21,391 bases of DNA. Source: a virus. Taxonomy: Duplodnaviria; Heunggongvirae; Uroviricota; Caudoviricetes. The notes below the pieces were generated by a model. The model ran no database searches and was not told the origin of the DNA. It was given only the letters and a program-made list of their open reading frames with translations. The translations under genes were made by a program, and so were the position numbers. The stretch spans positions 1 to 21,391 of the IMG/VR virus record IMGVR_UViG_2778261068_000006; one strand, 5' to 3'. This document shows positions 1 through 17,526 of the stretch, piece after piece (position 1 is the stretch's first letter; each line of letters begins with the position of its first letter).

Positions 1-1020
1 CTACTTACTGACCACAAGCGGCAAATCCAGTGTTGGGGTGATTTTGGTTTTACGATCGTAAATCAACACCTGATTTTCTGTTTTGTGTCCACTGAAAATT
101 TGTTTGTCGCGACTGCTGCCTTCGTAATCTGAAATCCCTTTGGCTTTTATGTCATGGAAGTTGCACCCAAACGGAACGCCGGCTTTTTGCTCGGCTGCAC
201 GTTTAGCCTGATTCCACCAGTTGTTCAGCGTCTTGGCTATTACCTTCCCGCCTTTGGTTGTGTTGATCACATACTCGCATGTGCCGGAAGATACATTTCG
301 GGCTAACTGGATCGCCGTACGTAATCGCGGAGACCATTCCTTGATTTGTTTAGTGCCGGTCTTGTTTTGCTCAATGTAAATCCCTTTATCCATAATATCC
401 TGCCATTTCAGCTCGAGTACATCACCGAGCCTTGCCGCACAAAGATAGGATATCTCCATTGCAATACGTAACTGTGGAATTGCTTCCGCATATATTGCAG
501 CATACTGTTCATCGGTGATGTAAACAGTACGGGCTTTAAGTGTGAATTTTCTGACTCCTTTGCATGGATTATTTTTCACATACCCACGCTCATATCCCCA
601 TCCGTATACACGGCTCAGACTTGCCAGTTCATGGTTTGCCTGGGTCTTGCTCTCAAGTCCTCGCTTATCCATGAAAATTCTTACCTGTTCAATTTTTACA
701 TTATCAGCAAGCACTTTTCCGAATACTGCCAACAATGCCCTTTGATGTTGCCGATAATCTTTTTGGGTTCGGGGTGCCAGTTCTGTAAATGCAGGGGAGT
801 CCATAAACATGTGCCATAATTTAGCTACTGTCATTATGTTGTGGAGTTTTGCTTTTTCCAGCTCATAATTTTGCCAGACTTTAGCTACGCTGGTTTCCCG
901 CACTCTTCCGAGCCCTATAGTTCTTGTGCTTCCTTCGGGTTTCCATACGTAACTGTAACCATTCGATCTAACACGCGGTGGTAATGCATTATCTTTTTTG
1001 TTTTTTCTTGGTCTTCCCAT
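1..1020 (-). CDS. int: Phage integrase, tyrosine recombinase (lambda Int-like); complete, stop codon at bases 1-3
   Basis: 339-aa ORF; N-terminus MGRPRKNKKDNALPPRVRSNGYSYVW resembles lambda Int N-terminus (MGRRRSHERRDLPPNLYIRNNGYY); C-terminal catalytic region contains H-x-x-K/R and LIYDRK tyrosine motif; position at prophage edge, overlapped by upstream xis-like ORF. Confidence 0.9.
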   Translation of the reverse strand: MGRPRKNKKDNALPPRVRSNGYSYVWKPEGSTRTIGLGRVRETSVAKVWQNYELEKAKLHNIMTVAKLWHMFMDSPAFTELAPRTQKDYRQHQRALLAVFGKVLADNVKIEQVRIFMDKRGLESKTQANHELASLSRVYGWGYERGYVKNNPCKGVRKFTLKARTVYITDEQYAAIYAEAIPQLRIAMEISYLCAARLGDVLELKWQDIMDKGIYIEQNKTGTKQIKEWSPRLRTAIQLARNVSSGTCEYVINTTKGGKVIAKTLNNWWNQAKRAAEQKAGVPFGCNFHDIKAKGISDYEGSSRDKQIFSGHKTENQVLIYDRKTKITPTLDLPLVVSK

Positions 1021-1240
1021 TGTTCAGCGCCTCAAAATCGGGTTCAGCGGAAACCAGTTCAGGTGCTTTTGGCATCGTAGCCAGTCCGTGTGGAATATCC
1101 CTGCGAAGAACTATTGGTTCGTTTTTAGGACCGATTACAAATGGGATACCGTGCAGCCTTAACTGGTGTTGCTGTTTTGTGTATCGCTCGTATTTCGTGA
1201 TCTCTTGAATCTCTGCTGGCGATAGAGTTAATTCGTACAT
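989..1240 (-). CDS. xis: Excisionase (lambda Xis-like)
   Basis: 83-aa ORF starting MYELTL (lambda Xis starts MYLTL) and ending with basic NGKTKKKQKR tail (lambda Xis ends NGKKAKS); overlaps int start by 32 nt as in lambda xis-int. Confidence 0.65.
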   Translation of the reverse strand: MYELTLSPAEIQEITKYERYTKQQHQLRLHGIPFVIGPKNEPIVLRRDIPHGLATMPKAPELVSAEPDFEALNNGKTKKKQKR

Positions 1241-1306
1241 GTGGTCACGTGCCTTACAGCATGACCGCCGCCAATATAATTCGGAGACGGCGATCAGGGT
1301 TGAACA

Positions 1307-3787
1307 TTAAAAATCAACCGGATTCGGGATCAGTTTTTGCCAGATTGCTGAAACGTATTTTGCCTGGTGACGGGCGTCATCCAGTGCATTGTGGCGAACG
1401 CCTTCGAATGGAATAACGGTTCCAGCATCAAAGTCGATTGTTTTTCCCAGCTCAACGATTGTGCGTACATCGCGATCGTTGTGGTAGCGCCACGGGCAGG
1501 GGATGTCCAGACGTTCGTATGAGGTGCGCAAAATTGCGTTATCGAAAGTTGCACCATTACCCCATACCTGAACGAATTTTTCATCTGAGTATTCGTTGAT
1601 GAACTCCCGAAACCGCGAAAGGGCATCCTTCAGTTTTACCTGGTCTGTTAAAATGGCAGCTCTGGCTTCACTGGACTGCTTCAGCCACCATTTGATGGTT
1701 CCACCGTCAGGAGCAGCCCCTGTATTCATTGCGTCAGTCAGACTGATAACGATATAAAATACTGGCCCGATTTCCCCTGTTTGTGGGTCGAAGAAAACCG
1801 CACCAATAACCACGATGGGCGCATTGGTGTTGGTTCCCATTGTTTCAAGGTCGATCATCAGGTGGTACCACACTCTGCTGGTGGATGTGATAACGTGATG
1901 ACCGTTCACCACAATTAAGGGATCTGCCGTCTCACCAGTTTCATTATCGCTGGCGTGGTCCTGAGCGCTGCCAGCATTCTCCTTGTGTGGATGTTCAGCG
2001 CCTTCCATTTCCTCCGGGTCATTTTCCTGAACTTCAACCTGATTCTCTTCATCGAATGTTTCCTGGTATGTTGCGTCGCCCATCACCGCGCCACAATCAG
2101 GGCAGTTGCCGCCACCGCTCTGACCGCAGGCGGTGCAGACTTTTTCCGGTTCCTGTTGCGCTACTGGCTCAGGTTGTTTCGTTTCTGGCTCGTTTTGTAA
2201 CGCATTTTGGCTGTTTTGTTCCGCTTTCTGGTCGTTCTGTTCCGATTCTTGCTGGTTCTGGTTTACAGAATCGCGGGTTTCAATCCCCTTCACCCATTTC
2301 GGATCATTCGGGTCGCTAATCCCTGCAACAAATTCTCCGCGAGAGGCAGCAAGCAACTTATCGGCGTCAGGCTGGCTGATATTGGCTGCCTGCATAATTT
2401 TGTTTACTTCGTCAGCGGTAACTTTTACCGGCTCTGGTTGTGCGGTCGTGTCAGATGCACCAGTATTTTGTTGTGAACCTGAGTACGTGCCGTTTTTACG
2501 GGCAAAATATTCTTCTTTCGTGATTTCAGTAGCCCCTGCAGCCAGCGCCTTATTCAGACCAGAAAGTTTGTTTGCACGACCATATTTTTCGCCATCCTTA
2601 TCGGTGAAGAGGAAGTAGAACGGCCCCTCACGCTCTACAGATGGTTCAGTTTCCAGCGCGCTTTCATTTTTTTGGGTATCAGATACTTCAGTTTCCACTG
2701 CATCAGTTTGTGCTGCTGACGGCTGGAGAATATCAGCAGTGCTCTGGTCTGTTTCTTCATCCTCAAACACGCCCTTTGTCGCCAGGTATTCAGTGATGTA
2801 TTTGTTCAGCGCCACGGGATCTTTGTGAATGTCGATCGGACGCTCACGGACAAGGCCAAAAATAGTCTGACGGTCGTAGCGAACGGCATCAGGTTGTTTG
2901 CGCATTGATGCGGAAATACGCTTCCAGTCTTCGCGATCTTTGTCGATAACCTCATTTTTTGCCCAGCGATGGATGCTGCCGTCAATGTTTCCGGCATCAA
3001 TATCACCAGGCCAGAAAGCGTAGGCCAGTTCTTCATCCAGTGTTTTCCATGTCTGCTTGTATTCGCGACGAATGACAGCAGTTACGGAGTCAGTTTTTCC
3101 TGCAGAGTTTTCAGTGCCTTGCCGGTTGACTCTGGCGCGGGCAAGATCGACGACGGAATTATATGCGCCACCTTCTTTGCGCTCCTTTTCCATGCGTTTT
3201 TTACGTTCGAGAAAATACGCCTGAACGTCGGGCCATTTGGCTGTTGGTTTTAAATCACGTCTGGCATCGTTGATGTACTCAATCTGACGCTCTGGATACA
3301 TGGCGTTAATTTCTCTGGTCCGGATAATTGCTTCAGCGAGGTGTCCATCAAAAGTCGTCATCTCGTCATCGCCGAGAAGCCCGCTTGCATTGATGACCAT
3401 ATCCACGGTGATGTTTTCATGTGTACCGAACCTGACAAGGACAGCAGCCCGCTTGTCTTCAGATAACTGATTAAAGTTAACAGTTTCTGTATCCGGTTCA
3501 GGGTCGACCGGAACAAAGGAAGCCGACTCCTCATTCCAGCGGTTTTCCTGCATATATTCGGAATCCCAGGAATCGAGAGCAGGGCGGGCCATGCCGGGTT
3601 TATCCTCGCAGACAAGAAATTTATAAGCACAGTCCTGAGCTTCCGGGTATTGTTCCAGAAATAACCAGCTAAATTTGGCTCTTGCCCGGCGTTCGTCGCC
3701 TGCTTCAATGGCAGTGGCCACAGGTTTGGCGCCTTCTGCTGTTGCCTGTTCGTCCGGAATGGCGGCGCAAATAAAGACTTTACTCAT
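1307..3787 (-). CDS. Large prophage exonuclease-like protein: C-terminal DnaQ-like DEDDh 3'-5' exonuclease domain, internal zinc ribbon, acidic Q/E/N-rich linker (resembles prophage 'exodeoxyribonuclease VIII-like' proteins)
   Basis: 826-aa ORF with SD (gagg) upstream; C-terminus has exonuclease motifs MIDLETMG (Exo I, D-x-E), WGNGATFDNAIL (Exo II), HNALDDARHQAKY (Exo III, H-x4-D); CTACGQSGGGNCPDCG zinc-ribbon motif; located in the lambda exo/bet position. Confidence 0.6.
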   Translation of the reverse strand: MSKVFICAAIPDEQATAEGAKPVATAIEAGDERRARAKFSWLFLEQYPEAQDCAYKFLVCEDKPGMARPALDSWDSEYMQENRWNEESASFVPVDPEPDTETVNFNQLSEDKRAAVLVRFGTHENITVDMVINASGLLGDDEMTTFDGHLAEAIIRTREINAMYPERQIEYINDARRDLKPTAKWPDVQAYFLERKKRMEKERKEGGAYNSVVDLARARVNRQGTENSAGKTDSVTAVIRREYKQTWKTLDEELAYAFWPGDIDAGNIDGSIHRWAKNEVIDKDREDWKRISASMRKQPDAVRYDRQTIFGLVRERPIDIHKDPVALNKYITEYLATKGVFEDEETDQSTADILQPSAAQTDAVETEVSDTQKNESALETEPSVEREGPFYFLFTDKDGEKYGRANKLSGLNKALAAGATEITKEEYFARKNGTYSGSQQNTGASDTTAQPEPVKVTADEVNKIMQAANISQPDADKLLAASRGEFVAGISDPNDPKWVKGIETRDSVNQNQQESEQNDQKAEQNSQNALQNEPETKQPEPVAQQEPEKVCTACGQSGGGNCPDCGAVMGDATYQETFDEENQVEVQENDPEEMEGAEHPHKENAGSAQDHASDNETGETADPLIVVNGHHVITSTSRVWYHLMIDLETMGTNTNAPIVVIGAVFFDPQTGEIGPVFYIVISLTDAMNTGAAPDGGTIKWWLKQSSEARAAILTDQVKLKDALSRFREFINEYSDEKFVQVWGNGATFDNAILRTSYERLDIPCPWRYHNDRDVRTIVELGKTIDFDAGTVIPFEGVRHNALDDARHQAKYVSAIWQKLIPNPVDF

Positions 3788-3879
3788 TTTGTTTTACCTC
3801 ATTACAGATTTAAGGGTGGACAAATCCCTGCCATTGCTGACATATAAAAATAAAACCGGATATTTATTATGGGGCTGTT

Positions 3880-4071
3880 TTAAAGGCCTGCCGGGATTTC
3901 GTTATTGTTCATGCGAATAATTTTGTCGACAGGATAACAGTTCCCGGGAATTTTTTGCTCTGCCGCGGCAGTCATGCATTCTTCCATTGAGTCATGTATG
4001 TCAATAACAAGATCAATCGGTTCACCAGAAACAAAAAAAACAGTCAGAACGAGTACAAATGCCGTATTCAT
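3880..4071 (-). CDS. ydfD: YdfD-like small membrane lysis protein (Qin prophage family)
   Basis: 63-aa product MNTAFVLVLTVFFVSGEPIDL...GNCYPVDKIIRMNNNEIPAGL matches remembered E. coli YdfD; ATGA start/stop overlap with dicB at 4068-4071. Confidence 0.7.
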   Translation of the reverse strand: MNTAFVLVLTVFFVSGEPIDLVIDIHDSMEECMTAAAEQKIPGNCYPVDKIIRMNNNEIPAGL

Positions 4072-4256
4072 TGCCTGCATCCTGTTTGCATCAGACGTAA
4101 ACGGGCCAGCATCGAAACAATGCATATTTTATTTAGCAGTTCCTGTTCGTGTTTTCTTTTATTAATGGCATCTTCAGTAAATATCTGATTGCTGATAGTG
4201 ACACCAATTTCAAAACAACCTTCAGACGTATTAACGTTTGGTAATAACGTTTCCAT
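4068..4256 (-). CDS. dicB: DicB cell-division inhibitor (MinC-activating)
   Basis: 62-aa product METLLPNVNTSEGCFEIGVTISNQIFTEDAINKRKHEQELLNKICIVSMLARLRLMQTGCRQ closely matches E. coli K-12 DicB; SD gagga upstream; the longer 97-aa ORF in the track is an in-frame upstream extension. Confidence 0.8.
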   Translation of the reverse strand: METLLPNVNTSEGCFEIGVTISNQIFTEDAINKRKHEQELLNKICIVSMLARLRLMQTGCRQ

Positions 4257-4423
4257 TATCGCGTCCTCAACAATGAATTTTGTGATGCGGTGCCTGGTGC
4301 CTCCAGGTGACGTTAACCAGTTAACAATTAACGCCGGATACAGAGAATCCACCCATAACACTGTTTTTAGCTTTAACTGTTCCGCGTGCGCTTAGCCGCA
4401 TTCACCGCATCACAAAATTCACT

Positions 4424-4481
4424 TTAAAAAGGGCGGACATCAGTTCATGGGCAAACAGATGCCGCCAAACGTCACCAGAAA
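4424..4481 (-). ncRNA. dicF: DicF small RNA (ftsZ-targeting sRNA of the Qin dicB operon) with 3' intrinsic terminator
   Basis: Minus-strand sequence TTTCTGGTGACGTTTGGCGGCATCTGTTTGCCCATGAACTGATGTCCGCCCTTTTT matches the K-12 DicF sequence as I remember it (UUUCUGGUGACGUUUGGCGGUAUCAGUUUU...GCCGCCCUUUUU) with an identical 5' seed and a GGCGG/CCGCC hairpin plus U-tract; lies upstream of dicB as in Qin. Confidence 0.7.
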
Positions 4482-4785
4482 ATTGATAACAGAGGGCGTT
4501 GCAGCGGGGTTGTCACTTAAGCGTATGGTCAACCTGACAACCCGGTGTCCTCAACGGGGAAGGAATAACCCCGCCATACTTACCGCCGCGCCATTTCGCG
4601 GAGTGCCACAACCGGAAGCGCACGGTCGACGAAAATTTAACGACAGGCTATCTATGAACCAGCTACCTCGCCGTGCGCTTTCGCGTTATGGTCTGACTTT
4701 TCAGGGAAATATCCTTTCAGTAAACTGTCAGTGCCGGATGCTCGCCCGTGTCCGGCGCACGCACTCTACCTCACCCGTGAATAAA

Positions 4786-5172
4786 TTAATGATTAATTGA
4801 TATTTTATAGGTGGATTCAACTTTCCCATCGGATGTGTGATGCTTTAAATCACAGGAATTAATACTGCTTGCTGTAAAGTGATTTTCAAGGGGGTCTATT
4901 CGAATCCCTTTCTTTTTCATTAACAGGCCAAATCCCTTATTAATGATGTCCATTAATTCCAGAAAGTATTTTTCATGTAAATCCTGGTTATCAGAGAGCT
5001 GCTTCTCTTTGTATAGCCCGATAAAGGCTCGGCGCACGTTACCGGATATATTATCGATGGTTTCTTTTTCTACGGTACTCAGGTCAAGAGTAGCCAATTG
5101 AGAACGAACTATATTCGCTGCCATTTCCTGGAATGGTATTGGTAAATCTTTAAATTCCATCGTCAACCTCAT
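4786..5172 (-). CDS. Hypothetical protein, YdfB/YdfC-like (dicB operon)
   Basis: 128-aa ORF (possible start at MEFKDL); region FQEMAANIVRSQLATLDLSTVEKETIDNISGNV resembles Qin ydfB/ydfC products; TGATG translational-coupling overlap with upstream ydfA-like ORF. Confidence 0.55.
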   Translation of the reverse strand: MRLTMEFKDLPIPFQEMAANIVRSQLATLDLSTVEKETIDNISGNVRRAFIGLYKEKQLSDNQDLHEKYFLELMDIINKGFGLLMKKKGIRIDPLENHFTASSINSCDLKHHTSDGKVESTYKISINH

Positions 5173-5324
5173 CAGTCAGTGTTTCTGGCTAACCAGCGAC
5201 GCGCGCCAGATTCGGTTTTAAGCGTTTTGCTTTTGGTATACGTCATTGCGGTGAACGTACTGTCCTGGTTTGGGAACACGCCGCACACCAGAGATTCGTT
5301 GTTGCCAAGATCGATAGTATCCAT
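5172..5324 (-). CDS. ydfA: YdfA-like small protein, first gene of leftward early operon
   Basis: 50-aa product MDTIDLGNNESLVCGVFPNQDSTFTAMTYTKSKTLKTESGARRWLARNTD; SD gagg 7 nt upstream of ATG at 5324; the longer 68-aa ORF in the track has no RBS. Confidence 0.55.
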   Translation of the reverse strand: MDTIDLGNNESLVCGVFPNQDSTFTAMTYTKSKTLKTESGARRWLARNTD

Positions 5325-5378
5325 GCTGACCTCATTTCCCCTTAACGCCGGGGTAGCGGAACTGTTTGCTGAGAACAC

Positions 5379-5492
5379 CGTGCGGTGTCTTGATGGAGAT
5401 TAATTTAGAATAACCTAACAAATGTGGCAAGTGTTTTTTGTTAGATTGGTCTAACAAAAAGAGTGAGGGAATCTAAGTATCTGAAAGGAGTG
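5379..5492. promoter_or_regulatory. Left operator/promoter region (OL/PL-like): two TTAG-N6-CTAA palindromes at 5405-5418 and 5441-5454
   Basis: Perfect 4+6+4 inverted repeats TTAGaataacCTAA and TTAGattggtCTAA, 36 bp apart, upstream of the leftward ydfA-dicF-dicB operon and downstream of the repressor gene. Confidence 0.5.
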
Positions 5493-5900
5493 TTATTTTA
5501 TTGATTTGTTTTTACGTGCTTTAAGCATTTCTTCGAAGAGTTTATTGAAATTCTCTACTCTTGCGCGCATTTCAGACAGTAAGGCTTCCTGCTCGGAGGA
5601 GGGAAGAGCATCGAATAATTCGATCAATTCTTTGTGGCTGGGAGTTAACTCGGTTTCCACATGAAGTTCTTGTGCTGGCACTGGTGCCTTGTCTTCGTCA
5701 CCAAACATTAGCCATGTAGGCGAGCACTTCAGCGCATCAGCTAAAGCAAATAACCGCTTCCCGACCGGTTGGGTTTCGTCTCTTTCCCATTGTGAAATTG
5801 TGACGTGAGCTACCCCAGCGAGGCGTGCAGCTTCTCGTTGTGTTAGGCGTAATTCTTTTCGTCGTGCCAGAACTCGCTGGCCTAGGGTTCTTGTATCCAT
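5493..5900 (-). CDS. dicA: Prophage repressor, HTH XRE family (DicA-like, cI functional analogue)
   Basis: 135-aa product; QREAARLAGVAHVTISQWERDETQP HTH; C-terminal ...CSPTWLMFGDEDK...EMRARVENFNKLFEEMLKAR matches remembered DicA (135 aa); divergent from dicC. Confidence 0.85.
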   Translation of the reverse strand: MDTRTLGQRVLARRKELRLTQREAARLAGVAHVTISQWERDETQPVGKRLFALADALKCSPTWLMFGDEDKAPVPAQELHVETELTPSHKELIELFDALPSSEQEALLSEMRARVENFNKLFEEMLKARKNKSIK

Positions 5901-5980
5901 AGTTAGGTAATTCTAATTTTTCTTGACTTAGGTATCCCGTGCACATTACTGTTAGGAATATCTAACAAGAGGGGGTTTTG
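5901..5980. promoter_or_regulatory. Immunity switch region (OR-like): two TTAG-N6-CTAA palindromes at 5903-5916 and 5952-5965 plus divergent promoters
   Basis: TTAGgtaattCTAA abuts the dicA start codon; TTAGgaatatCTAA lies 16 nt upstream of the dicC ATG; TTGACT -35-like hexamer at 5923-5928. Confidence 0.5.
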
Positions 5981-6208
5981 ATGCTTAAAGTTGACGCAAT
6001 TACTTTTTTTGGCAGCAAAACAAAACTTGCCAATGCCGCAGGAGTGAAACTGGCAAGTGTTGCTGCATGGGGGGAACTGGTTCCTGAAGGTCGCGCGATG
6101 CGCCTGCAAGAGGCATCCGGCGGGGAACTTCAGTACGACCCCAAAGTTTATGACGAATATCGTAAGGCAAAGCGGGCGGGGCGGTTGAACAATGAAAATC
6201 ACCCCTGA
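5981..6208 (+). CDS. dicC: Cro-like regulator DicC
   Basis: 75-aa product MLKVDAITFFGSKTKLANAAGVKLASVAAWGELVPEGRAMRLQEASGGELQYDPKVYDEYRKAKRAGRLNNENHP matches remembered DicC; SD gaggggg upstream; the track ORF starts 3 nt earlier at TTG. Confidence 0.8.
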   Translation: MLKVDAITFFGSKTKLANAAGVKLASVAAWGELVPEGRAMRLQEASGGELQYDPKVYDEYRKAKRAGRLNNENHP

Positions 6209-6713
6209 ACAGGTTTGTGAGGCTCTGGATGCCTGGGTATGCCGACCAGGAATGACACAGGAGCAGGCGACGATATTAATCACGGAAGCATTCTGGGCTC
6301 TGAAAGAACGCCCGAACATCGATGTTCAACGCGTCACGTTTGATGATGGCGCGGTTGATCAACGGGCGCTGGGCGTCAACCGGGTGAAGATATTCGAACG
6401 CTGGAAAGCTATCGACACCAGGGATAAGCGGGAAAAATTCACGGCGCTGATTCCGGCAATTATGGAGGCTATCCGGATCAGCGATTTCAGGTTGTATTGT
6501 GAAATTACTGACGGAAAAAGCATTACGTACATGATCGCCGGGTTAAACAAAGAATATGGCGATGTGGTGGAGTCCGGTCTGCTTTTGGCAGATCCTGCTG
6601 TTGTGGAGCGTGAGACTGACGAGCTTATAGAAAAAGCTATTGCTTTCAAGCATGCGTATCGTCAGCAATATCAACAAAAAGCCGGATGGAATTATGAGTC
6701 TTCTTTTTGCTGA
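6192..6713 (+). CDS. ydaT: YdaT-like protein (CII-like regulator/toxin family of Rac/CP-933P immunity regions)
   Basis: 173-aa ORF immediately after the cro-like gene; motif REKFTALIPAIMEAI resembles YdaT REKIQKLIPAILAIL; synteny repressor-cro-ydaT. Confidence 0.55.
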   Translation: MKITPEQVCEALDAWVCRPGMTQEQATILITEAFWALKERPNIDVQRVTFDDGAVDQRALGVNRVKIFERWKAIDTRDKREKFTALIPAIMEAIRISDFRLYCEITDGKSITYMIAGLNKEYGDVVESGLLLADPAVVERETDELIEKAIAFKHAYRQQYQQKAGWNYESSFC

Positions 6714-7659
6714 ACGCCCACTGGTTATTAACACGCAGCTGGCGATGAAAATTGGCCTGAATGAAGCCATTGTACTGCAGCAGCTGCATTACTGGTTGAG
6801 AGATACTAATTCCGGCATGGAATGTAACGGGGTTCGCTGGATTTATAACACAACAGAACAATGGCTGGAACAGTTCCCGTTCTGGTCAGAGTCAACGTTA
6901 AAACGCGCATTTGCAAGTCTGAAAACGCTGGGGCTTTTGCGTTGCGAAAAGCTCAACAAATCAAAGCGTGACATGACTAATTTTTACACGATTAATTACG
7001 AGAGTGAGCTTTTAGATGGTGGCAAAGTGAGCGAATCCATCAGGTCAAAATGCGCCGCTCCATCAGGTCAAAATGACACGATGGAAGAGGTCAAAATGGC
7101 ACGCTCCATTGGTTCAAAACGACCCAATGTCATCGGGTCAAAATGGCCTGATGATCTTACAGAGAATACAACAGAGATTACTACAGAGAATAAAAACACT
7201 TCTCGTCCGGAAGCTTCGCAACCGGACTCGCAGACGGCTGAACAGGATTTTTTAACCCGACACCCTGACGCGGTTGTGTTCAGTGCGAAAAAACGCCAGT
7301 GGGGAAGTCAGGAAGATTTGGCGTGCGCACAGTGGATCTGGGGACGAATCGTGAGTCTTTACGAGCAGGCTGCCAGCGATGATGGCGAGATCACGCGACC
7401 GAAAGAACCAAACTGGACCGCATGGGCCAATGATGTGCGCACAATGCGGATGCTGGATGGCAGAACTCACAGACAAATTTGCGAAATGTTTGGTCGGGTA
7501 CAGCGGGATCCATTCTGGGTAAAAAACGTCATGAGCCCGTCAAAGCTTCGTGAAAAATGGGATGAGCTGGTTATTCGTCTGGGGCGTCCGCCTGTACAGC
7601 GTTGTGTGAATCATATTTCTGAACCGGATACCGAAATTCCCCCAGGGTTCAGGGGGTAA
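6694..7659 (+). CDS. Replication initiation protein: N-terminal phage replisome-organiser-like DNA-binding domain, C-terminal DnaT (primosomal protein I)-like domain
   Basis: Start ATG 6694 preferred (MSLLFAERPL; the track ORF begins at 6640); C-terminus ...VNHISEPDTEIPPGFRG matches the E. coli DnaT C-terminus (...NTVSEPDSQIPPGFRG); iteron array lies inside the gene. Confidence 0.7.
   Translation: MSLLFAERPLVINTQLAMKIGLNEAIVLQQLHYWLRDTNSGMECNGVRWIYNTTEQWLEQFPFWSESTLKRAFASLKTLGLLRCEKLNKSKRDMTNFYTINYESELLDGGKVSESIRSKCAAPSGQNDTMEEVKMARSIGSKRPNVIGSKWPDDLTENTTEITTENKNTSRPEASQPDSQTAEQDFLTRHPDAVVFSAKKRQWGSQEDLACAQWIWGRIVSLYEQAASDDGEITRPKEPNWTAWANDVRTMRMLDGRTHRQICEMFGRVQRDPFWVKNVMSPSKLREKWDELVIRLGRPPVQRCVNHISEPDTEIPPGFRG
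7036..7145. repeat. Iteron array, probable phage origin of replication: five copies of GGTCAAAATG-like repeat at about 23-bp spacing
   Basis: Copies at 7043-7052, 7066-7075, 7089-7098 (ggtcaaaatg), 7111-7121 (ggttcaaaacg), 7136-7145 (gggtcaaaatg); first two share tccatcaggtcaaaatg; followed by A-rich stretch 7150-7200; embedded in initiator gene as for lambda ori in O. Confidence 0.65.
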
Positions 7660-7699
7660 GTGTTTATTTCGGGTCATGAGGTAATTTTCAGGAGGGCTT

Positions 7700-8122
7700 G
7701 TGGCAAAAGTATTTACACAAGAAGAGCGAGAAAAAATTAAAGGGCAGGTGGTGGAACTCGTGCGCCAGAGCGGTCGAGAGACGTTACGGCAACTGGAAGC
7801 TAAAACAGGTGCGACAAGATATCTGATGAGTGTTCTCGCCAGAGAGCTGGTTGCCAGTGGCGATGTATACAACTCCGGCTACGGGTTATTCCCGTCTGAA
7901 CAGGCGCGTAAGGACTGGCAAAACGCCCGCAAAAAACTCTCGAGGGCAAAGGTGAAGAAACCTGCTGTGGTTGATCTGGACCTTATCTGGTCATTTCCTG
8001 ACGGAGAAATACGTCGCTACGACAGTCGTCTAAACATAATCTGTAGCGAGTGCCGTAAGAGAGAAGTGATGAAGCGTGTACTGATGTTTTATCGAGGAAA
8101 TATCCAGAAATTTGTTCGGTAA
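7700..8122 (+). CDS. Hypothetical protein (possible HTH; CxxC near C-terminus)
   Basis: 140-aa ORF, GTG start with strong SD aggagg at 7691-7696; no recognisable family. Confidence 0.55.
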   Translation: MAKVFTQEEREKIKGQVVELVRQSGRETLRQLEAKTGATRYLMSVLARELVASGDVYNSGYGLFPSEQARKDWQNARKKLSRAKVKKPAVVDLDLIWSFPDGEIRRYDSRLNIICSECRKREVMKRVLMFYRGNIQKFVR

Positions 8123-8259
8123 GCAAAATCAAAATGTAATAGCTCAAGTTTAAGTTGGTGTATCTACGGCGCAGAGCCATCGCCTCATCTGGCACTGCGC
8201 TAAAATCAAATTTTAGTTCCACTCTTTATTTGGTATCTGCTAAAACGCTACATAAGATT

Positions 8260-8532
8260 TTACTTTTTTAAAGAATAAGGGAATATGTGCACCATATTGG
8301 AGGCTAGTGGATATATTCCTATGCCACGAGTTGTCTTTTTTAGTTGATCTATGCTTGCTCCTTGATCGGGAGCTTGGCCTCCCCACACTGTAACCCCCTC
8401 AGGTATATCAATTGGGCGACTTTTGTTTTCATCTGTGATTTCAATAGTTTCTCCATTATTAAGTGTAATAATCAACGATGACACGTCTAGGTGTTGTGTA
8501 TTCCCATTTTTATTTTTAATGTCTATTTTCAT
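8260..8532 (-). CDS. Hypothetical protein in AT-rich island
   Basis: 90-aa ORF in markedly AT-rich segment (about 8123-8880); no clear SD; coding status uncertain. Confidence 0.3.
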   Translation of the reverse strand: MKIDIKNKNGNTQHLDVSSLIITLNNGETIEITDENKSRPIDIPEGVTVWGGQAPDQGASIDQLKKTTRGIGIYPLASNMVHIFPYSLKK

Positions 8533-8898
8533 GGCTATTTCATTATATGTTATCTGTGCTGGAGTAATAAGTTTACGGTATTAAGAAGCATTTTAACGAA
8601 ACAATCAACTGACTTATCAGTAAAGATAGCATTGTAATGCGATCTGATTGGTATCATCAGGACGCTTGTTCAAAAAAGGAGCATTAGTTGATCTTGAAAT
8701 TTTGCTCAAAATATCTAGCCTCTTGTTTAACTGCCAACTTTTGGGGGCAGTACACTCTGATGCTACACTCCTTGCAAGTTTCATTACCCCGACGTAAACA
8801 TTTATGACAGTTGCTGATTTCAAACGTCCTAAGTTGGAGCTCCCAAACGGGGCAAACAAACTACTATTACACTCTTGTTGTGCACCATGTTCCGGTGA

Positions 8899-9387
8899 AG
8901 TGATGGAGACTCTTCAGGCCTCAGGAATCGAGAACAACACGGTGTAGCGTTTATCGATGCTGATTACGACACTGACAACTGGTTTGAGCGAGCCAAAGGA
9001 ATGGAATGGGAGACCGAACGTGGGAGGCGTTGTACTATGTGTTTTGACATGCGTTTTGAGCGGACAGCGCTGTACGCCGCTGAAAATGGTTTCAGTGTGA
9101 TCAGCAGTTCACTGGGCATTTCACGCTGGAAAAATATGCAGCAGGTTAACGACTGCGGACGGCGAGCTGTCGCACATTATCCGGGAATTGTGTACTGGGA
9201 TTATAACTGGCGCAAGCAGGGGGGCTTGTCCCGCATGATTGAAATCAGCAAACGCGAACAATTCTATCAGCAGGAATATTGTGGCTGTGTGCATTCTCTG
9301 CGCGATACCAATCTACACCGCAAATCTCAGGGACGCCCTCTTATCAAAATTGGTCAACTCCACTACGGTAAAGAAGAGAAGGAGTGA
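8899..9387 (+). pseudogene. Probable 5'-truncated gene fragment encoding a Cys-rich protein (CxxC ... CGC motifs); family uncertain (possibly DUF208/QueH-like, unverified)
   Basis: Open frame runs from 8899 to stop at 9387 but the first start codon is ATG 9001; upstream in-frame sequence ([20 protein letters not shown]) looks coding yet has no start; abrupt AT-rich junction at about 8880. Confidence 0.4.
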
Positions 9388-9580
9388 TTTTATGGATCAC
9401 CTTTCTGATTGATTTCATATTGGCGAGGTTACGGGAGTTAAGTAGAATTGCTGCGGGTGCTTGAGGCTATCTGTCTCAGGCATGAATGCCAAAAGGCAGA
9501 TAGAGAAAAGCCCCAGTTAACATTACGCGTCCTGCAAGACGCTTAACATTAATCTGAGGCTCAATCTATGAACGGCAAAT

Positions 9581-10654
9581 CTAGGTTAGCCTCTTACGTG
9601 CCGAAAGGCAAGGAGTTGTATGGGTCCACCACATATTGCAATTTTTGTTCTCTCTTAAAATATATTCCACGGGTGTCATTAGCGCGAGCGCCTTATGGGG
9701 CCTTTTGCTGTTATACAGCACCAGATATTCCGCCAGCTTCTGATTAAATAGCGCCAGATCTTCAAAGAGTAAAATCTCATTAAATTCAATAAACTGCTCT
9801 CTTAACGTCCGGTTAAAACGTTCACAGATAGCGTTCATTTTTGGCGTGTAGGGATAGGTCCAGAGGTGTTTGATAGCGGCTTCCTGCAGCGTTTTGTCGA
9901 AGTTTCCCAGGAACTCTTTTCCGTTATCTGTGATTATCTGGCTGATACCGACCGGGAACAACCGGGCTGCGCGGCTGAAGAAGTGATTGACGATATCACT
10001 GTTGAGTGACGGCACAGCCAGCGCCAGCGCGTAATTGCTGCATTCGTCGATCATGGTGATGACATAGCGACGCAGTTCGCCCATTCTGAGCTCAATGGCG
10101 TCCATCCCAATGAGCTCACCTGTCTTTACCGGGCGATAGTGCTTTGGCCTGCGGGGTTTGGCAGACCGCTTTTTGACAAGCAGTGCCTTCCCCCGCGATC
10201 CCAGACGCACAGGTATCATCCGCATTTTATCATGTGCGGCAGCGATCATTCTGCCGATGGTGGAAACACTCGGACAGGCCAGATAGCGCTGTTCGCACCA
10301 GGGCTTCAGGCGAACAAAAATCTGCTCTTTACCGAGGTTCGGCAGCTCTGTCCTGAGGCGTCGAATCTCTTTCAGCACATCGGGATGCCAGTGTTTTTTT
10401 CGTCGCACCAGAGGTGCCTTACTGTGCGGGATTAGCCCCTCAGGTCCTTCCTTGTTCAGTAACTGACGCCACCAGTAAAGCGTGCGGCAGGACACGCCAA
10501 AGGCTTCAGAAGCCGCAGAAATACCGTGTTTATCCCAGAAGTGCAGAGCCTTCATTCTCATTGTTGCTGTATCAGCCATCACTGAAAGCCTCAACGCATA
10601 ATCGGCCGTTTGGTAGTACTTAGGATAGCCAACCATCAGATGCTGCATTTGCAT
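9581..10654 (-). CDS. DDE transposase (HTH + rve integrase-core), IS481-family-like
   Basis: 357-aa ORF; HTH GISAASEAFGVSCRTLYWWRQ; catalytic triad candidates D (MIDECS), D (ITDNGKEF), E (NAICERFNRT); likely true start at internal Met (MADTATMRMK, about 10579). Confidence 0.8.
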   Translation of the reverse strand: MQMQHLMVGYPKYYQTADYALRLSVMADTATMRMKALHFWDKHGISAASEAFGVSCRTLYWWRQLLNKEGPEGLIPHSKAPLVRRKKHWHPDVLKEIRRLRTELPNLGKEQIFVRLKPWCEQRYLACPSVSTIGRMIAAAHDKMRMIPVRLGSRGKALLVKKRSAKPRRPKHYRPVKTGELIGMDAIELRMGELRRYVITMIDECSNYALALAVPSLNSDIVNHFFSRAARLFPVGISQIITDNGKEFLGNFDKTLQEAAIKHLWTYPYTPKMNAICERFNRTLREQFIEFNEILLFEDLALFNQKLAEYLVLYNSKRPHKALALMTPVEYILRENKNCNMWWTHTTPCLSARKRLT

Positions 10655-10702
10655 AGTGCAATTTCCCCTTACTTATCCTGAGGTAATTGCAATATCTCTG
10701 TG
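9581..10702 (-). mobile_element. Insertion sequence, IS481-family-like (single-ORF DDE transposase); boundaries approximate
   Basis: Transposase ORF plus candidate imperfect terminal inverted repeats CACATATTGCAATT (9630-9643) and AATTGCAATATCTCTGTG (10685-10702); no clean target-site duplication found, so ends are uncertain. Confidence 0.6.
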
Positions 10703-10725
10703 AACTTACACAGGAGAAGCAGGCT

Positions 10726-10881
10726 ATGAAGCAGCAAAAGGCGATGTTAATCGCCCTGATCGTCATCTGTTTAACCGTCATAGTGACGGCACTGGTAACG
10801 AGGAAAGACCTCTGCGAGGTACGAATCCGAACCGGACAGACGGAGGTCGCTGTTTTCGTAGACTACGAATCTAGAGAGTAA
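10726..10881 (+). CDS. hokD: Hok/Gef-family type I toxin (HokD-like)
   Basis: 51-aa product MKQQKAMLIALIVICLTVIVTALVTRKDLCEVRIRTGQTEVAVFVDYESRE matches the Hok family (single TM, conserved LCE.R..G..EVAA/VF); SD aggag at 10712-10716. Confidence 0.85.
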   Translation: MKQQKAMLIALIVICLTVIVTALVTRKDLCEVRIRTGQTEVAVFVDYESRE

Positions 10882-10950
10882 GAGTGACCAGGCGGGAGAG
10901 TAATCTCCCGCCACCTCTGATATGTCAGGCATCCTCAATGCACCCGCACT

Positions 10951-10976
10951 TAACCCGCTTCGGCGGGTTTTTTGTT
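10951..10976 (+). terminator. Rho-independent terminator downstream of hok
   Basis: aacccgc-ttcg-gcgggtt hairpin followed by TTTTTTGTTGTTT; preceded by 9-bp-stem hairpin ggcgggaga/tctcccgcc at 10891-10912 (hok mRNA 3' fold-back-like). Confidence 0.8.
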
Positions 10977-11156
10977 GTTTATTTTTAGTGGGGTTGATCT
11001 TTTTGATTGCGTCATCACGTTTGCCTGTAAAGGCGTCGCGGATGTATTGAACAGATAATGAGCCAACATAGAATCAAAAATTCTTAAGTAGCGCGCAGGG
11101 AGAAGATGGATGGACCCCAAACAGGGGAGTGCTATTTATCTGGAAGGATTCTGTTG

Positions 11157-11417
11157 ATGAAAATCGAAGAATTACGTGAAATTTTTAGTGAAGATGGCCT
11201 CTATACTGTGCGCGTTGAGAATGGCGCTATTGTCAGCCACTGCCGTATTAAATGTTTACAGTCTCAACAAAGGAAGAGTGGAGCTGCGTTAATTCATTTG
11301 GTGGATGGGCTTGTGACGGATGGTTTTATTTTGCGTGCAAATGAATTTGTCACATCGTTGTCGTCTCTGAAAGAAGCTGGGATTAAGGCTGGTTTTTCTG
11401 CTTTTGAAGATGAGTGA
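11157..11417 (+). CDS. Hypothetical protein (Rem-like position in Qin-type prophages)
   Basis: 86-aa ORF from ATG 11157 with SD ggaagga 9 nt upstream; the track ORF starts earlier at 11106. Confidence 0.5.
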   Translation: MKIEELREIFSEDGLYTVRVENGAIVSHCRIKCLQSQQRKSGAALIHLVDGLVTDGFILRANEFVTSLSSLKEAGIKAGFSAFEDE

Positions 11418-11483
11418 ATTCATCTACAATTCAGCGCAGGGCTGAACCCCTGTTGAGTAACACTGTGCCACCGGAGAAAGCCG

Positions 11484-12819: not shown

Positions 12820-13185
12820 ATGACTGAACGCATAGAATTTGCTTTGCCTTACCCGCCGACGGTGAATACCTACTGGCGACGTCATGGCAATACGTATTTC
12901 ATCTCGGAGGCGGGAAAGCGTTATCGCCGTGATGTGGCGCTAATTGTTCGCCAGCAGCGGCTGAAATTAAACCTGTCCGGAAGGCTGGCGATAAAGATTA
13001 TTGCAGAGCCACCGGATAAGCGCCGTCGTGACCTGGACAATATCCTGAAAGCACCACTGGATGCGCTGACGCATGCCGGACTACTCATCGACGACGAGCA
13101 GTTTGATGAAATCAATATTGTGCGCGGTCAGCTCGTTCCTGGTGGGCGGCTGGGGATAAAAATCACAGAACTGGAGTGCGCATGA
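12820..13185 (+). CDS. rusA: RusA Holliday-junction resolvase
   Basis: 121-aa product; PYPPTVNTYWRRH, PDKRRRDLDNILKAPLDALT and GGRLGIKITELE align to E. coli RusA (PWPPSNNRYYRH..., [31 protein letters not shown]). Confidence 0.9.
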   Translation: MTERIEFALPYPPTVNTYWRRHGNTYFISEAGKRYRRDVALIVRQQRLKLNLSGRLAIKIIAEPPDKRRRDLDNILKAPLDALTHAGLLIDDEQFDEINIVRGQLVPGGRLGIKITELECA

Positions 13186-13871
13186 ATAACCAGTATTTAC
13201 AGTTTGTGCGTGAGCAGCTCATTGTCGCTACCGCTGATTTGAGTGGGGCAACAAAAGGTCAGCTTGAAGCCTGGCAAGAGAATGCCATGTTCGATACAGG
13301 GCGTTACAGGCGAAAAAAAATCCGGTACCGCGATGAAGTGACTGGAAAAATGATAACGCGGGATAATCCACCAATCCCGGGGAAGCAATCGCTGGCGAAG
13401 GGGACGTCAATTCCTCTGGTCAGTCCGGTTGAGTTTTCGACATCATCGTGGCGGCGGGCTGTTCTGTCTCTTGAAGAGCATCATAAAGCCTGGTTGTTGT
13501 GGTGTTACGGCGGAAACATTTGCTGGGAGCATCAGATCGCGATAACGCAGTGGGTGTGGAATGAATTTAAAACCCAGTCTGGTACCAGAAAAATTGCAGG
13601 AAAAACGCTGGAGCGTGTGAAGAAGTTGATATGGCTGGCGGCACAGGATGTCAGAGGATGGGTTACCGGGAGCGAGGTCTACCAGCGGCAGGAGCTTGCC
13701 AGACTGTGTGGAGTTAAGCCAGACAACTGGAGCCATAATTATGCGAACTACTGGCGTGAGATGTGCGACATTTTTAAGAATCTCGATACAGAATCCTTGA
13801 TTTCCACCGTGAAAAAGAGAACGCAACAAAAAGCGATCTTTTCACGACGAGATATTGCAAAAGTCAATTAA
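13176..13871 (+). CDS. Late-gene antiterminator, Q-like (QuuQ-like)
   Basis: 231-aa ORF between rusA and a tR'-type terminator; alternative start ATG 13182 gives ATGA coupling with rusA stop; call is largely positional. Confidence 0.55.
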   Translation: MRMNNQYLQFVREQLIVATADLSGATKGQLEAWQENAMFDTGRYRRKKIRYRDEVTGKMITRDNPPIPGKQSLAKGTSIPLVSPVEFSTSSWRRAVLSLEEHHKAWLLWCYGGNICWEHQIAITQWVWNEFKTQSGTRKIAGKTLERVKKLIWLAAQDVRGWVTGSEVYQRQELARLCGVKPDNWSHNYANYWREMCDIFKNLDTESLISTVKKRTQQKAIFSRRDIAKVN

Positions 13872-13934
13872 ATCGCGTACATTTTGTGTAAATCTGATAT
13901 TTTGCCGATTTTGTATGCGATGGCAAAGTAAGCA

Positions 13935-13960
13935 AAACCCGCCGATAAGCGGGTTTTTTG
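13935..13960 (+). terminator. tR'-like intrinsic terminator downstream of Q (late promoter PR'/qut expected at 13850-13934)
   Basis: aaacccgc-cgataa-gcgggttt perfect 8-bp stem followed by TTTTTTG; candidate promoter TTGCAA (13855-13860), 17 bp, TACATT. Confidence 0.8.
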
Positions 13961-13967
13961 TATTACA

Positions 13968-14864
13968 ATGCATGCGTTTAATTACTTTTTGGACCATTGC
14001 AACATGAAATCAGATAAGGCAGAAAACTTAGAGAATCCACTCGAACGTAATGATTTTACAATTGATGACTTCCACCATGTTCTTAGGGAGTTTGATAAAG
14101 CTGTTTGTGAAGCCAATGCGGTAAGTCAGGGAGTAGGTGTGCGAATGGCTGAGGCTTATCAAGGTTGGTCAACATATATATTTGCACGAATTTGCATTCA
14201 TGCTTCGATTATGATTTCTAATGTTCCTAAGTCCAGATGGGCTAAGCGAGATTACGATTTCTGGGATTTTGCTTCTATAGCATCTCATGTCAGGGCGATC
14301 CTTGAAGCTGAACTTCTGTTTATGTATTTGTCTGAAGCACCAGATTCAGAAGAGGCTTGGTCAGCAAAGCTAAATGTTATGCACATGAATGATTGTGTAA
14401 AAAGGATAGAATTATTCACGCAAAGTGATAATACAGAAGCATTAGGGTTTTATAATGAGCAACAGAGTATAATTGCGGAAAGACTCAATAAAAACCCTGC
14501 TTTTTTATCACTTGATAGTGGTACTAGGAAACGTTGCTTGTCAGGCAAGGCTTTAACAATTCCTAATAGAGACGATTTATTGATTAAACTAGGGAAAGAC
14601 CCAAAATCGTTTAAAGTGATGTTTGATTTTCTATCGCATTACACACACATACTCCCTATGTCATATTACAAAATGGAACCGAATGGGAGAGGGACTGGTT
14701 GTTTTAACAAGTTCGATTTTGGATATATAATAATGGGTATGTTGCTATGTACTGAATCTTTGATTAAGTGTACTGAACGGTTGGTGGATATTTTCCCTGA
14801 TGTTAAACGGTTAAGAAAAGGAACTAAATCAAAATTTACATTGGGCCCTAAACCAACAAAATAA
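13968..14864 (+). CDS. Hypothetical protein, AT-rich late-region cargo gene in the Q-tR'-holin slot; function unknown
   Basis: 298-aa ORF (alternative start ATG 14004, MKSDKAENL...); clearly lower GC than flanking phage genes; no signal peptide or TM segment evident; no family recognised. Confidence 0.7.
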   Translation: MHAFNYFLDHCNMKSDKAENLENPLERNDFTIDDFHHVLREFDKAVCEANAVSQGVGVRMAEAYQGWSTYIFARICIHASIMISNVPKSRWAKRDYDFWDFASIASHVRAILEAELLFMYLSEAPDSEEAWSAKLNVMHMNDCVKRIELFTQSDNTEALGFYNEQQSIIAERLNKNPAFLSLDSGTRKRCLSGKALTIPNRDDLLIKLGKDPKSFKVMFDFLSHYTHILPMSYYKMEPNGRGTGCFNKFDFGYIIMGMLLCTESLIKCTERLVDIFPDVKRLRKGTKSKFTLGPKPTK

Positions 14865-15030
14865 AATTAGCTAGAGTTTCTCCACTTCGAAGGCTCCCAA
14901 TGGGGGCTTTTGCATTTCAGGAGCTGGAAATCACTTTCACTTCCCCTTTGGTATAAGGGGGTGAGTCTGAGCTCCATTCCTCTCCTTACATTTTTTTCTC
15001 AGAGAACCCACAGTCATAAGAGGTGGCTTA

Positions 15031-15417
15031 ATGTCCGATCCTATTTCCGGTACTGGGTTAGCCGGAGGAGTTCTAACGGGAGTTAGTATTTATGGCCTGT
15101 TTACAGGTACGGATTATGGTGTTGTATTTGGCGCATTTGCAGGAGCTGTTTTCTACATAGCGACAACTGCAGATCTGACGGCAACGCTCCGACTGGCATA
15201 TTTCATCGTGTCATATATCGCTGGGGTTTTGTGTTCTGGGTTAGTTGGTTCCAAACTGGCGAATTTGACCGGATACAGTGATAAACCTCTGGATGCTATT
15301 GGTGCCGTAATCGTCTCTGCTTTAGCCGTTAAAATCCTGACGTTTCTGAATAACCAGGGTATCGGTTCGCTGGTGGCGCTCATAACGCGCCGGGGAGGTT
15401 CAGGTGGTACAAAATGA
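15031..15417 (+). CDS. Holin (multi-TM small membrane protein)
   Basis: 128-aa ORF with SD gaggtgg; hydrophobic segments GVLTGVSIYGLF, FGAFAGAVFYIATT, AYFIVSYIAGVLCSGLVG, AIGAVIVSALAV; first gene of lysis cassette. Confidence 0.7.
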   Translation: MSDPISGTGLAGGVLTGVSIYGLFTGTDYGVVFGAFAGAVFYIATTADLTATLRLAYFIVSYIAGVLCSGLVGSKLANLTGYSDKPLDAIGAVIVSALAVKILTFLNNQGIGSLVALITRRGGSGGTK

Positions 15418-15685
15418 CCTATCGGCAACTTTTAATGCATTGCTTTGTGCTGGGGTAGTGTTAACCCTGATGTTTTACCGTCGCGGCGACTCGCGACATC
15501 GGCCGTGGATATCTCGTTTAGCGTGGCTGCTTACGGTCATGTACAGTGCCGTTCCGCTGGCGTATCTGTGCGGTATTTACCCGTACTCATCATGGGGCAC
15601 TATCGGGGCCAACATTATTTTCCTCTCTGTGCTGGTAGCCGTCAGAGGCAACGTGGCACGTCTGGTTGATCATCTGAGGCGCTAA
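15404..15685 (+). CDS. Small membrane protein of lysis cassette (holin/antiholin-like)
   Basis: 93-aa ORF, GTG start with SD ggggagg; overlaps holin stop by 14 nt and endolysin start by 1 nt; two to three predicted TM helices. Confidence 0.5.
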   Translation: MVQNDLSATFNALLCAGVVLTLMFYRRGDSRHRPWISRLAWLLTVMYSAVPLAYLCGIYPYSSWGTIGANIIFLSVLVAVRGNVARLVDHLRR

Positions 15686-16299
15686 TGAACCAATCACAAT
15701 TTCAGCAGGCGGCTGGTATCAGCGCCGGGCTTTCTGCGCGCTGGTTTCCGCACATTGATGCGGCATTGAAAGAGTTTGAAATCACAGCAGTTAACGATCA
15801 GGCCATGTTCATTGCACAAGTTGGGCACGAATCGGCCGGTTTTACCTCGCTGGTGGAGAGCTTTAACTATTCGGTAGAGGGTCTGAAGAAAACCTTTGGT
15901 AAACGCCTGACTCCGTATCAGTGTGAAATGTTGGGACGTATCGATGGTAGGCAGATAGCCCACCAGCAGCAAATAGCCAATTTGGTTTACGGTAACCGCC
16001 TGGGGAATAACAGCCAAGGGGATGGCTGGAAATATCGTGGTCGTGGCCTGCTTCAAATCACCGGCCGGGAGAACTACGCCAAATGCGGTACGGCGCTGAA
16101 GCTTGATCTAATCGGTACACCAGAGTTGCTGACGCAGGAGAAGCATGCTGCCCGTTCTGCTGCTTGGTTTTTCACGTTACGTGGTTGTCTCCTTTACTCG
16201 GGAGAGCTGGAGCGCGTCACGCAGATTATTAATGGCGGGCAGAACGGCATTAAAGACCGTCGTGAACGTTACGCCAAAGCTAAAGCCGCACTGGTGTGA
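15685..16299 (+). CDS. Endolysin, glycoside hydrolase family 19 (chitinase-like lysozyme)
   Basis: 204-aa product with GH19 motifs FIAQVGHESAGF and YRGRGLLQITGRENY. Confidence 0.8.
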   Translation: MNQSQFQQAAGISAGLSARWFPHIDAALKEFEITAVNDQAMFIAQVGHESAGFTSLVESFNYSVEGLKKTFGKRLTPYQCEMLGRIDGRQIAHQQQIANLVYGNRLGNNSQGDGWKYRGRGLLQITGRENYAKCGTALKLDLIGTPELLTQEKHAARSAAWFFTLRGCLLYSGELERVTQIINGGQNGIKDRRERYAKAKAALV

Positions 16300-16986: not shown

Positions 16987-17526
16987 TTAGAAACTGCGTG
17001 GAGCTGTGGAAAGAATGGATGCCAGTTCTTCCTTTGATAAATCCCAGCTTCGATTTACAGCGTCAATTTTCTTAAACTCATCAAGCATTGCGTTATAGAG
17101 ATGTTCTGTACGTGAATGAGTATTGGCAATGGGCTGTTTCTGTTCGGGGAAGCGATCAATTTTCTGATACGCCTCAATGATACTGAAGTAATCGCATTCA
17201 TTATTACCGTCGAAACCTGGGAGCTGAATTTCCCCATCATGTATTTTTAGATGATGGTCACGGACTAATTCTTTTTGCTCGTCATCACTAAGTTTCCTGA
17301 AAGCATTGGAAAGTCCGCGGTACATATTCAAGACAGCAGTAACAAAATCACGATCTTCTTTACTTGGTTCATCAACATCCAAATGTGAATATTCGGCCTT
17401 CATAACCCAATCATTACCAGATGACACAGCATATTTTACAAGCTGTGGATCAATATCAGTTTCGATACCTAGGTGGATGGCAATGTCACATAACAAAATG
17501 GTATTGATTTTATCCTTAATATCCAT
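16987..17526 (-). CDS. YfbU (UPF0304)-family protein, antisense moron between lysis and packaging genes
   Basis: 179-aa AT-rich ORF; EDRDFVTAVLNMYRGL, PGFDGNNECDYF and ANTHSRTEHLYNAML align to E. coli YfbU (EETCRTIIDIMEMYHAL, LGFDAATEARYL, GTHGFNAQTPMWEKYQRML); opposite orientation to all flanking late genes, own terminator. Confidence 0.6.
   Translation of the reverse strand: MDIKDKINTILLCDIAIHLGIETDIDPQLVKYAVSSGNDWVMKAEYSHLDVDEPSKEDRDFVTAVLNMYRGLSNAFRKLSDDEQKELVRDHHLKIHDGEIQLPGFDGNNECDYFSIIEAYQKIDRFPEQKQPIANTHSRTEHLYNAMLDEFKKIDAVNRSWDLSKEELASILSTAPRSF

Follow-up and report, generated by a model that had tools for sequence, protein, structure and literature searches.

The locus described here raises the question of which gene occupies the interval between the antiterminator gene Q and the lysis genes of a lambdoid Escherichia coli prophage, and what it does in that position. 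Shiga toxin (stxAB, stx2) is the best-known cargo of this Q-to-lysis slot. In the DNA analysed in this work (a stretch of 21,391 nucleotides, called the window throughout), the slot contains an AT-rich open reading frame that a preliminary description had regarded as horizontally acquired cargo, plausibly with a lysogenic-conversion, toxin or anti-phage function. The gene and those that flank it are the following.

13176 to 13871, plus strand: antiterminator gene Q of the PF06323 (Phage_antiter_Q) type (PF06323, E 1.5e-86; phrog_304, 1.8e-106; RefSeq name 'bacteriophage antitermination protein Q').
14004 to 14864, plus strand: DUF5677-family cargo gene of 286 aa, supported by the starts of its homologues, the family alignment and purifying selection.
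14997 to 16299, plus strand: lysis module, the right boundary of the cargo, recognised by Pfam matches and by homology with other phages.
15031 to 15417, plus strand: holin of the Phage_holin_8 family (Pfam).
15404 to 15685, plus strand: second holin (Pfam).
15685 to 16299, plus strand: GH19 endolysin (Pfam).

The matches of the Q gene to PF06323 and phrog_304 bear out what had been called a Q-like gene. The cargo gene lies between Q and its terminator on one side and the holin on the other, in the same orientation as both, which is the arrangement of the Stx-type slot. Its GC content is 36.8% (GC3, 30%) and that of the remaining window is 48.8%, so that the lower GC noticed at the outset is confirmed, and the spacer between the cargo gene and the holin measures 166 bp (14865-15030), where about 165 bp had been estimated. 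To judge from 50 homologues at E<=1e-51 and from a dN/dS of 0.065 against the Hafnia copy, a value that indicates strong purifying selection, the AT-rich open reading frame is a real gene. The longest reading frame does extend over 298 aa from the first ATG (13968-14864, plus strand), as had been described, but the likely product is shorter. Translation probably starts at the ATG at 14004 (286 aa) rather than at 13968, because RefSeq and all homologues begin there and because the upstream ATG of the Hafnia copy meets an in-frame TAA directly afterwards.

Transcription signals, or candidates for them, are found upstream of the gene, downstream of it and inside its 3' end.

13855 to 13883, plus strand: candidate late promoter pR' (TTGCAA, 17-nt spacer, TACATT), read by eye, with 8 of 12 consensus positions.
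13934 to 13959, plus strand: intrinsic terminator (tR') that coincides with the left recombination junction of the cargo; the stem-loop AAAACCCGCCGATAAGCGGGTTTT (13934-13957) is followed by a T-run.
14704 to 14731, plus strand: promoter-like site near the 3' end, within the cargo open reading frame (TTAACA, 16-nt spacer, TATAAT), with 11 of 12 consensus positions and the best score in the region.
14890 to 14918, plus strand: terminator-like hairpin just 3' of the cargo gene, AAGGCTCCCAATGGGGGCTTT followed by TGCATTTC.

The stem of tR' consists of 9 pairs, 5 of them G-C, and with its T-run to 13959 the structure corresponds to the tR'-type terminator previously placed at 13935-13960. In 21 of 25 prophage loci, an equivalent hairpin precedes the gene by 43-117 nt, and in 21 of 25 a hairpin comparable to the downstream one follows the stop codon after 7-35 nt. 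The score of the candidate pR' falls under the threshold of the promoter scan, and we infer its assignment. This segment travels with the Q module, since homology to other E. coli prophages continues through it and stops only at 13959-13963 (at 13959 in locus L002), within the terminator or just past it. A convincing sigma-70-like promoter belonging to the cargo gene was sought by scan and by eye in the 44 bp that separate tR' from the start codon, and none was found. The promoter-like site at 14704-14731 is probably spurious, a by-product of AT-richness; according to the sequence, a transcript starting there would meet the downstream hairpin ahead of the holin.

The distribution of the gene indicates that it is a mobile accessory gene in the Q-tR'-lysis slot of a lambdoid E. 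coli prophage. Among 5,426 complete E. coli genomes, only 17 contain the full arrangement of Q, cargo gene and holin, while about 1,500 show a match to at least a part of the query from Q to holin (mostly to Q alone) and 248 show one to the lysis cassette. Homology breaks are located on both sides of the gene: as mentioned, that of the Q module ends at the terminator, and that of the lysis module to other phages starts at about 14997 (query position 1822). The Hafnia copy aligns over 13935-14864, that is, over the terminator plus the open reading frame. A comparison of the slot across related prophages, which had been proposed as a check, shows that its contents vary. Thus, sister prophages L045 and L047 carry an 85-aa open reading frame, L046 carries an 89-aa and an unrelated 268-aa open reading frame, and L002 has about 650 bp without any annotated gene ahead of a different lysis cassette. 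The 268-aa protein of L046 was considered as a divergent homologue of the cargo protein and rejected (hhalign probability 4%). The preliminary description had also asked whether the same gene might stand in all related phages, with relatives of normal GC; it is absent from most of them, and its relatives in enterobacterial prophages show 35-39% GC. Rarity, variable slot content and homology breaks together support the idea of horizontally acquired cargo. None of the 50,697 sequenced phage records of INPHARED, which represent isolated phages, carries the gene.

In several of these features the cargo gene resembles the classical morons (HK97 gp15, lambda bor and lom): it is an AT-rich extra gene with its own terminator behind it, it is present in some close relatives and absent from others, and its base composition differs from the surroundings both here and in 16 other loci. 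It differs from them in lacking an identifiable promoter of its own within the 44 bp upstream, in being framed by terminators on both sides and in its position within the late operon.

The same address recurs in other enterobacteria. Relatives of 45-85% identity were taken from Hafnia, Citrobacter, Yersinia and Pantoea and from 22 IMG/VR contigs. An antiterminator Q gene is located immediately upstream in 23 of the 26 prophage loci, ending 98-246 bp before the start codon, and these Q proteins fall into PF06323 (10 loci), PF06530/DUF1133 (9 loci) and PF03589 (4 loci), three Pfam families that are unrelated to one another. The GC content of the gene is 35-39% in every enterobacterial prophage locus, with flanks of 46-56%; therefore, the composition is a property of the family and not the trace of one recent transfer. 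What lies downstream bears on the possibility that the protein is a lysis or structural accessory, for instance a holin regulator, which the contact with the holin gene would suggest. This possibility is close to refuted. At least four different holin families are found downstream of the relatives, a methyltransferase gene intervenes between the DUF5677 gene and the holin in Citrobacter, and the gene is absent from most prophages that have the same lysis cassette. It also occurs in contexts unrelated to phages and has no PHROG match, and profile and structure searches did not reveal a conserved phage structural or lysis protein, an outcome to which the preliminary description had drawn attention.

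The methyltransferase gene of the Citrobacter freundii prophages (L003-L007:9029-10081) is a second cargo gene placed after the DUF5677 gene, and it encodes an N6/N4 DNA methyltransferase. Some copies are truncated and fused to a tail-tube fragment, which indicates that the lysis and head genes were lost by deletion.

Other parts of the prophage are also variable. A YfbU-family gene (16987-17526, minus strand; PF03887, E 4.7e-12; phrog_6084; no PADLOC match) is situated on the opposite strand, in a second region of low GC (about 0.38-0.40) that separates the lysis genes from the HNH/terminase genes. The corresponding position is taken by a DUF6173 protein in sister prophage L046 and by a GrlR-family protein in L047, so that it constitutes a second variable cargo slot. 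In phi80-like phages, the equivalent position is occupied by Tai defence genes (PMC11364771).

In the early (left) half of the prophage, window positions 1-11462, the sequence is a mosaic that shows only patches of 85-95% identity with the related prophage L001, and the right half is 96.5% identical to it. This left half contains a type I toxin-antitoxin locus, hok/sok (9455-10881), in which an insertion separates the sok RNA at 9455-9622 (Rfam, 105.8 bits) from the Hok open reading frame at about 10726-10881. Between them there is a 357-aa open reading frame (9581-10654, minus strand), absent from L001, which we take, from its sequence alone, to encode a putative transposase-like protein. A QueH-like (epoxyqueuosine reductase) gene is apparently broken into two open reading frames (8804-8947 and 9001-9387), and it is intact in L001.

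With respect to the cargo protein itself, no family had been recognised at first, a statement now superseded. The protein matches Pfam DUF5677 (PF18928) over residues 87-222 with 23.5-23.6 bits (E 6e-5), under the gathering threshold of 27.1 bits; its membership holds by transitivity, because the threshold is exceeded by 73 of the 80 relatives that were aligned (identity 21-58%), the best with an E-value of 7.7e-18. No other family recurs among these relatives, and RefSeq labels the cargo gene product 'DUF5677 domain-containing protein'. When 1.84 billion representative proteins were searched with the profile, 1,212 clusters of relatives were obtained (620 at E<=1e-10), mostly stand-alone proteins of 255-300 aa. 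PADLOC-DB 2.0 (5,027 models), PHROGs and NCBIfam gave zero matches when searched with the window protein, and it could be assigned to no catalytic family.

The AlphaFold2 model, built from a 37-sequence alignment, is a confident one and describes a soluble, all-helical bundle of 12 helices (pLDDT 89.5, pTM 0.87). Foldseek comparison of the model with the PDB and with viral models gave nothing under E 0.36, and a likeness to toxin folds was sought and not found. Sequence or profile matches to solved PDB structures (Mitoguardin, E 0.002; pullulanase, E 0.1) were rejected as chance-level. The predicted mass and pI are 32.8 kDa and 8.1. By hydropathy it is not a membrane protein (best 19-residue Kyte-Doolittle mean, 1.3), in agreement with the earlier statement that it has no transmembrane segment. 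Across the wide family, three helix pairs with i/i+4 spacing are near-invariant (R97/E101, D130/R134 and S211/H215), and W87-D88 and a glycine-rich loop (GRGxG, residues 228-232) are likewise conserved. The subfamily to which the window protein belongs adds the extended motif 'NGRGTG' and a conserved basic C-terminal tail, RKGxKSKFxxGPK. The HEPN motif Rx4-6H was sought among the conserved positions and is absent from them. The proposal that the DUF5677 part could be a HEPN domain was rejected: alignment of the family profile with the HEPN-motif domain of relative P0152 gave an hhalign probability of 0.3%.

Relatives are also found outside phages. Single integron cassettes flanked by attC/VCR repeats are found in V. 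cholerae, V. rotiferianus and Shewanella, those of the Vibrio and Shewanella chromosomal integrons being about 50% identical to the window protein. Nine plasmids carry relatives, and relatives are also present in Thauera, Lysobacter, Rhodoferax and Rheinheimera. A scan of genome contigs for relatives gave 11 loci. The immediate or near neighbours of relatives include the following.

Lysobacter (L051): a type I restriction fragment, a TIR protein and an Old nuclease (PADLOC, 1.9e-229).
Thauera (L054): PDC-S06 (1.5e-212).
Rhodoferax (L053): a class I short pAgo (3e-173).
Shewanella (L017): IetA of the IetAS system (6.7e-76) and an S8 protease.
Celerinatantimonas (L048): HEPN_AbiU2.
V. cyclitrophicus (L010-L013): a DUF4365 nuclease-TPR (REase-TPR) protein.

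Some relatives are fused to other domains, either RES (5e-14) or a domain bearing the HEPN motif KIRNEAAHG (RNEAAH). Others have a C-terminal extension of about 270 aa that has no Pfam match (L053:2962-4626 of Rhodoferax; P0056; P0068), and the long form of Rhodoferax is placed directly downstream of the class I short pAgo.

The comparison with stxAB can be made at this point. Both loci consist of Q, pR'/tR', a foreign gene and the lysis cassette, with variable cargo whose expression is expected through Q read-through. Since the anatomy of the slot is identical to that of stx2 (Q, tR', cargo, holin) and avian-pathogenic as well as human isolates are among the host strains of the cargo gene, it has to be considered that the protein serves lysogenic conversion or virulence and is set free at lysis, as Stx is. 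We hold this very unlikely. The DUF5677 protein is unrelated to Stx and presumably cytoplasmic, it has no membrane-spanning segment by hydropathy, and its model is unlike any toxin fold. The family is widespread outside pathogens and phages, with relatives in Thauera, Lysobacter, Rhodoferax and Rheinheimera and in the integrons of marine Vibrio and Shewanella; a Stx-like exported toxin is disfavoured because the relatives live in environmental bacteria and integrons.

The fusions to RES and HEPN toxin domains, the carriage on integrons, plasmids and prophages and the presence of a hok/sok toxin-antitoxin module within the same prophage would also suit a selfish stabilisation or toxin-like element (addiction, stress response or growth-arrest effector) with no specific anti-phage role. 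However, the gene stands as a single gene in the prophage loci, none of which offers a partner antitoxin, it has been kept intact under purifying selection, and its neighbours elsewhere are specifically anti-phage systems. An element of this kind is therefore decidedly improbable.

The domain has a precedent in a known defence system. Aditi, attributed to Millman et al. in 2022, is said to be a two-gene defence system formed by ditA and ditB. In the DefensePredictor tables, DUF5677 is found at residues 276-427 of the Aditi DitA cluster (HHpred probability 99), and an E. coli DUF5677 protein is listed as a predicted novel defence gene with a log-odds of 5.7, although DUF5677 as a term is absent from the tables of screened and validated systems of the same work (PMC13092281). 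The window protein and DitA have the domain in common, both occur in mobile or defence contexts, and neither has an established biochemical activity. They differ in that the window protein, with 286 aa, does not include the N-terminal region of about 275 residues of DitA, and in that its gene is placed in a prophage late operon with no ditB-like partner. An adjacent ditB or other conserved partner was sought and none was found: the neighbours are Q and the holin here, and Q is upstream in 23 of 26 prophage loci. No PADLOC model, that of DitA included, matched the window protein or ten relatives at E<=1, N-terminally extended ones among them; these extended relatives were accordingly rejected as DitA orthologues.

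In another published data set, DUF5677 is enriched beside serine recombinases that mark defence loci (P 2e-92); the one DUF5677 open reading frame tested there, from a Bacillota species and expressed in E. faecalis against six phages, was not among the 5 of 9 candidates that were protective (10.1101/2025.10.07.681051). The attC-flanked relatives resemble the anti-phage integron cassettes (Darracq et al. 2024; Kieffer et al. 2024) in being small, autonomous single genes, whereas the window copy resides in a prophage and not in an integron. DUF5677, PF18928 and Aditi are not named in the accessible portion of the supplementary files of Darracq et al. and of a 2026 cassette-recovery preprint.

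Taken together, these data favour, with somewhat better than even confidence, the view that the cargo gene encodes a self-sufficient single-gene anti-phage defence protein, acting via abortive infection or exclusion and carried as a moron. The support for this view is by association: relatives occur as integron cassettes, have defence-island neighbours or are fused to RES and HEPN domains, DUF5677 is present in DitA, and an E. coli DUF5677 protein is a published defence prediction. Among the functions proposed in the preliminary description (conversion, toxin or anti-phage), the evidence favours the last and speaks against an exported toxin of the Stx type. There are also points that may count against defence, namely the lack of a PADLOC match, the Bacillota open reading frame that did not protect and the lack of an isolated phage carrier.

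The constant placement in the late operon could mean, in addition, that the gene serves the lytic cycle of the phage itself. This is the main rival of the defence reading, although we consider it unlikely. The protein would be a late phage function (counter-defence or anti-autoimmunity, interference with satellites or competitors, or host takeover) expressed only by Q-modified polymerase. The gene is always co-oriented with the late operon, 98-246 bp after a Q of any of the three families, and it follows tR' and lacks a clear promoter that would serve it alone. There is also a precedent, since the phi80 late-operon gene AtiEcA neutralises a prophage defence (PMC11364771). Against such a function, the relatives of about 50% identity are integron cassettes, plasmid genes and defence-island genes with no phage context, and the gene is missing from most related prophages and from all the phage records searched.

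The defence reading raises the question of how a defence gene works behind a terminator in a late operon. Defence requires expression in the lysogen, and such expression can only be presumed, given the strong terminator ahead of the gene and the lack of a convincing private promoter. The pR' promoter of lambdoid phages is constitutive. Leakage from it through tR' would supply the lysogen with small amounts of the protein, and full expression would follow when Q is supplied by the prophage itself or by an incoming phage of the same Q specificity. The second terminator would keep unmodified polymerase, including any transcripts from 14704-14731, off the holin and lysis genes. The helical bundle might then recognise a phage-derived trigger and act through the polar cluster R97/E101, D130/R134 and S211/H215, the NGRGTG loop and the basic tail; as a guess, the target would most plausibly be a nucleic acid or a nucleotide.

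A bolder version, which we regard as rather doubtful, is that placement behind tR' is the mechanism itself. The gene would be a Q-gated immune gene, and a matching Q would lead to bulk synthesis of a protein that blocks competitors or satellites or aborts the infection. Such gating would explain why one family is kept at exactly this position behind three unrelated Q families. If it is true, DUF5677 would represent a new single-protein defence fold.

Neither the gene nor its family name is new to databases, and a link between the domain and a validated defence system existed before. The new elements are the stand-alone subfamily, its conserved position after Q genes of three unrelated families and between two terminators, and its parallel occurrence as an integron cassette. 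The cargo gene provides a 286-aa single-gene handle on DUF5677, a domain shared with Aditi and with no recognisable relative of solved structure. The repeated settling of one family in the Q-to-lysis slot would make this slot a site for immune cargo besides virulence cargo.
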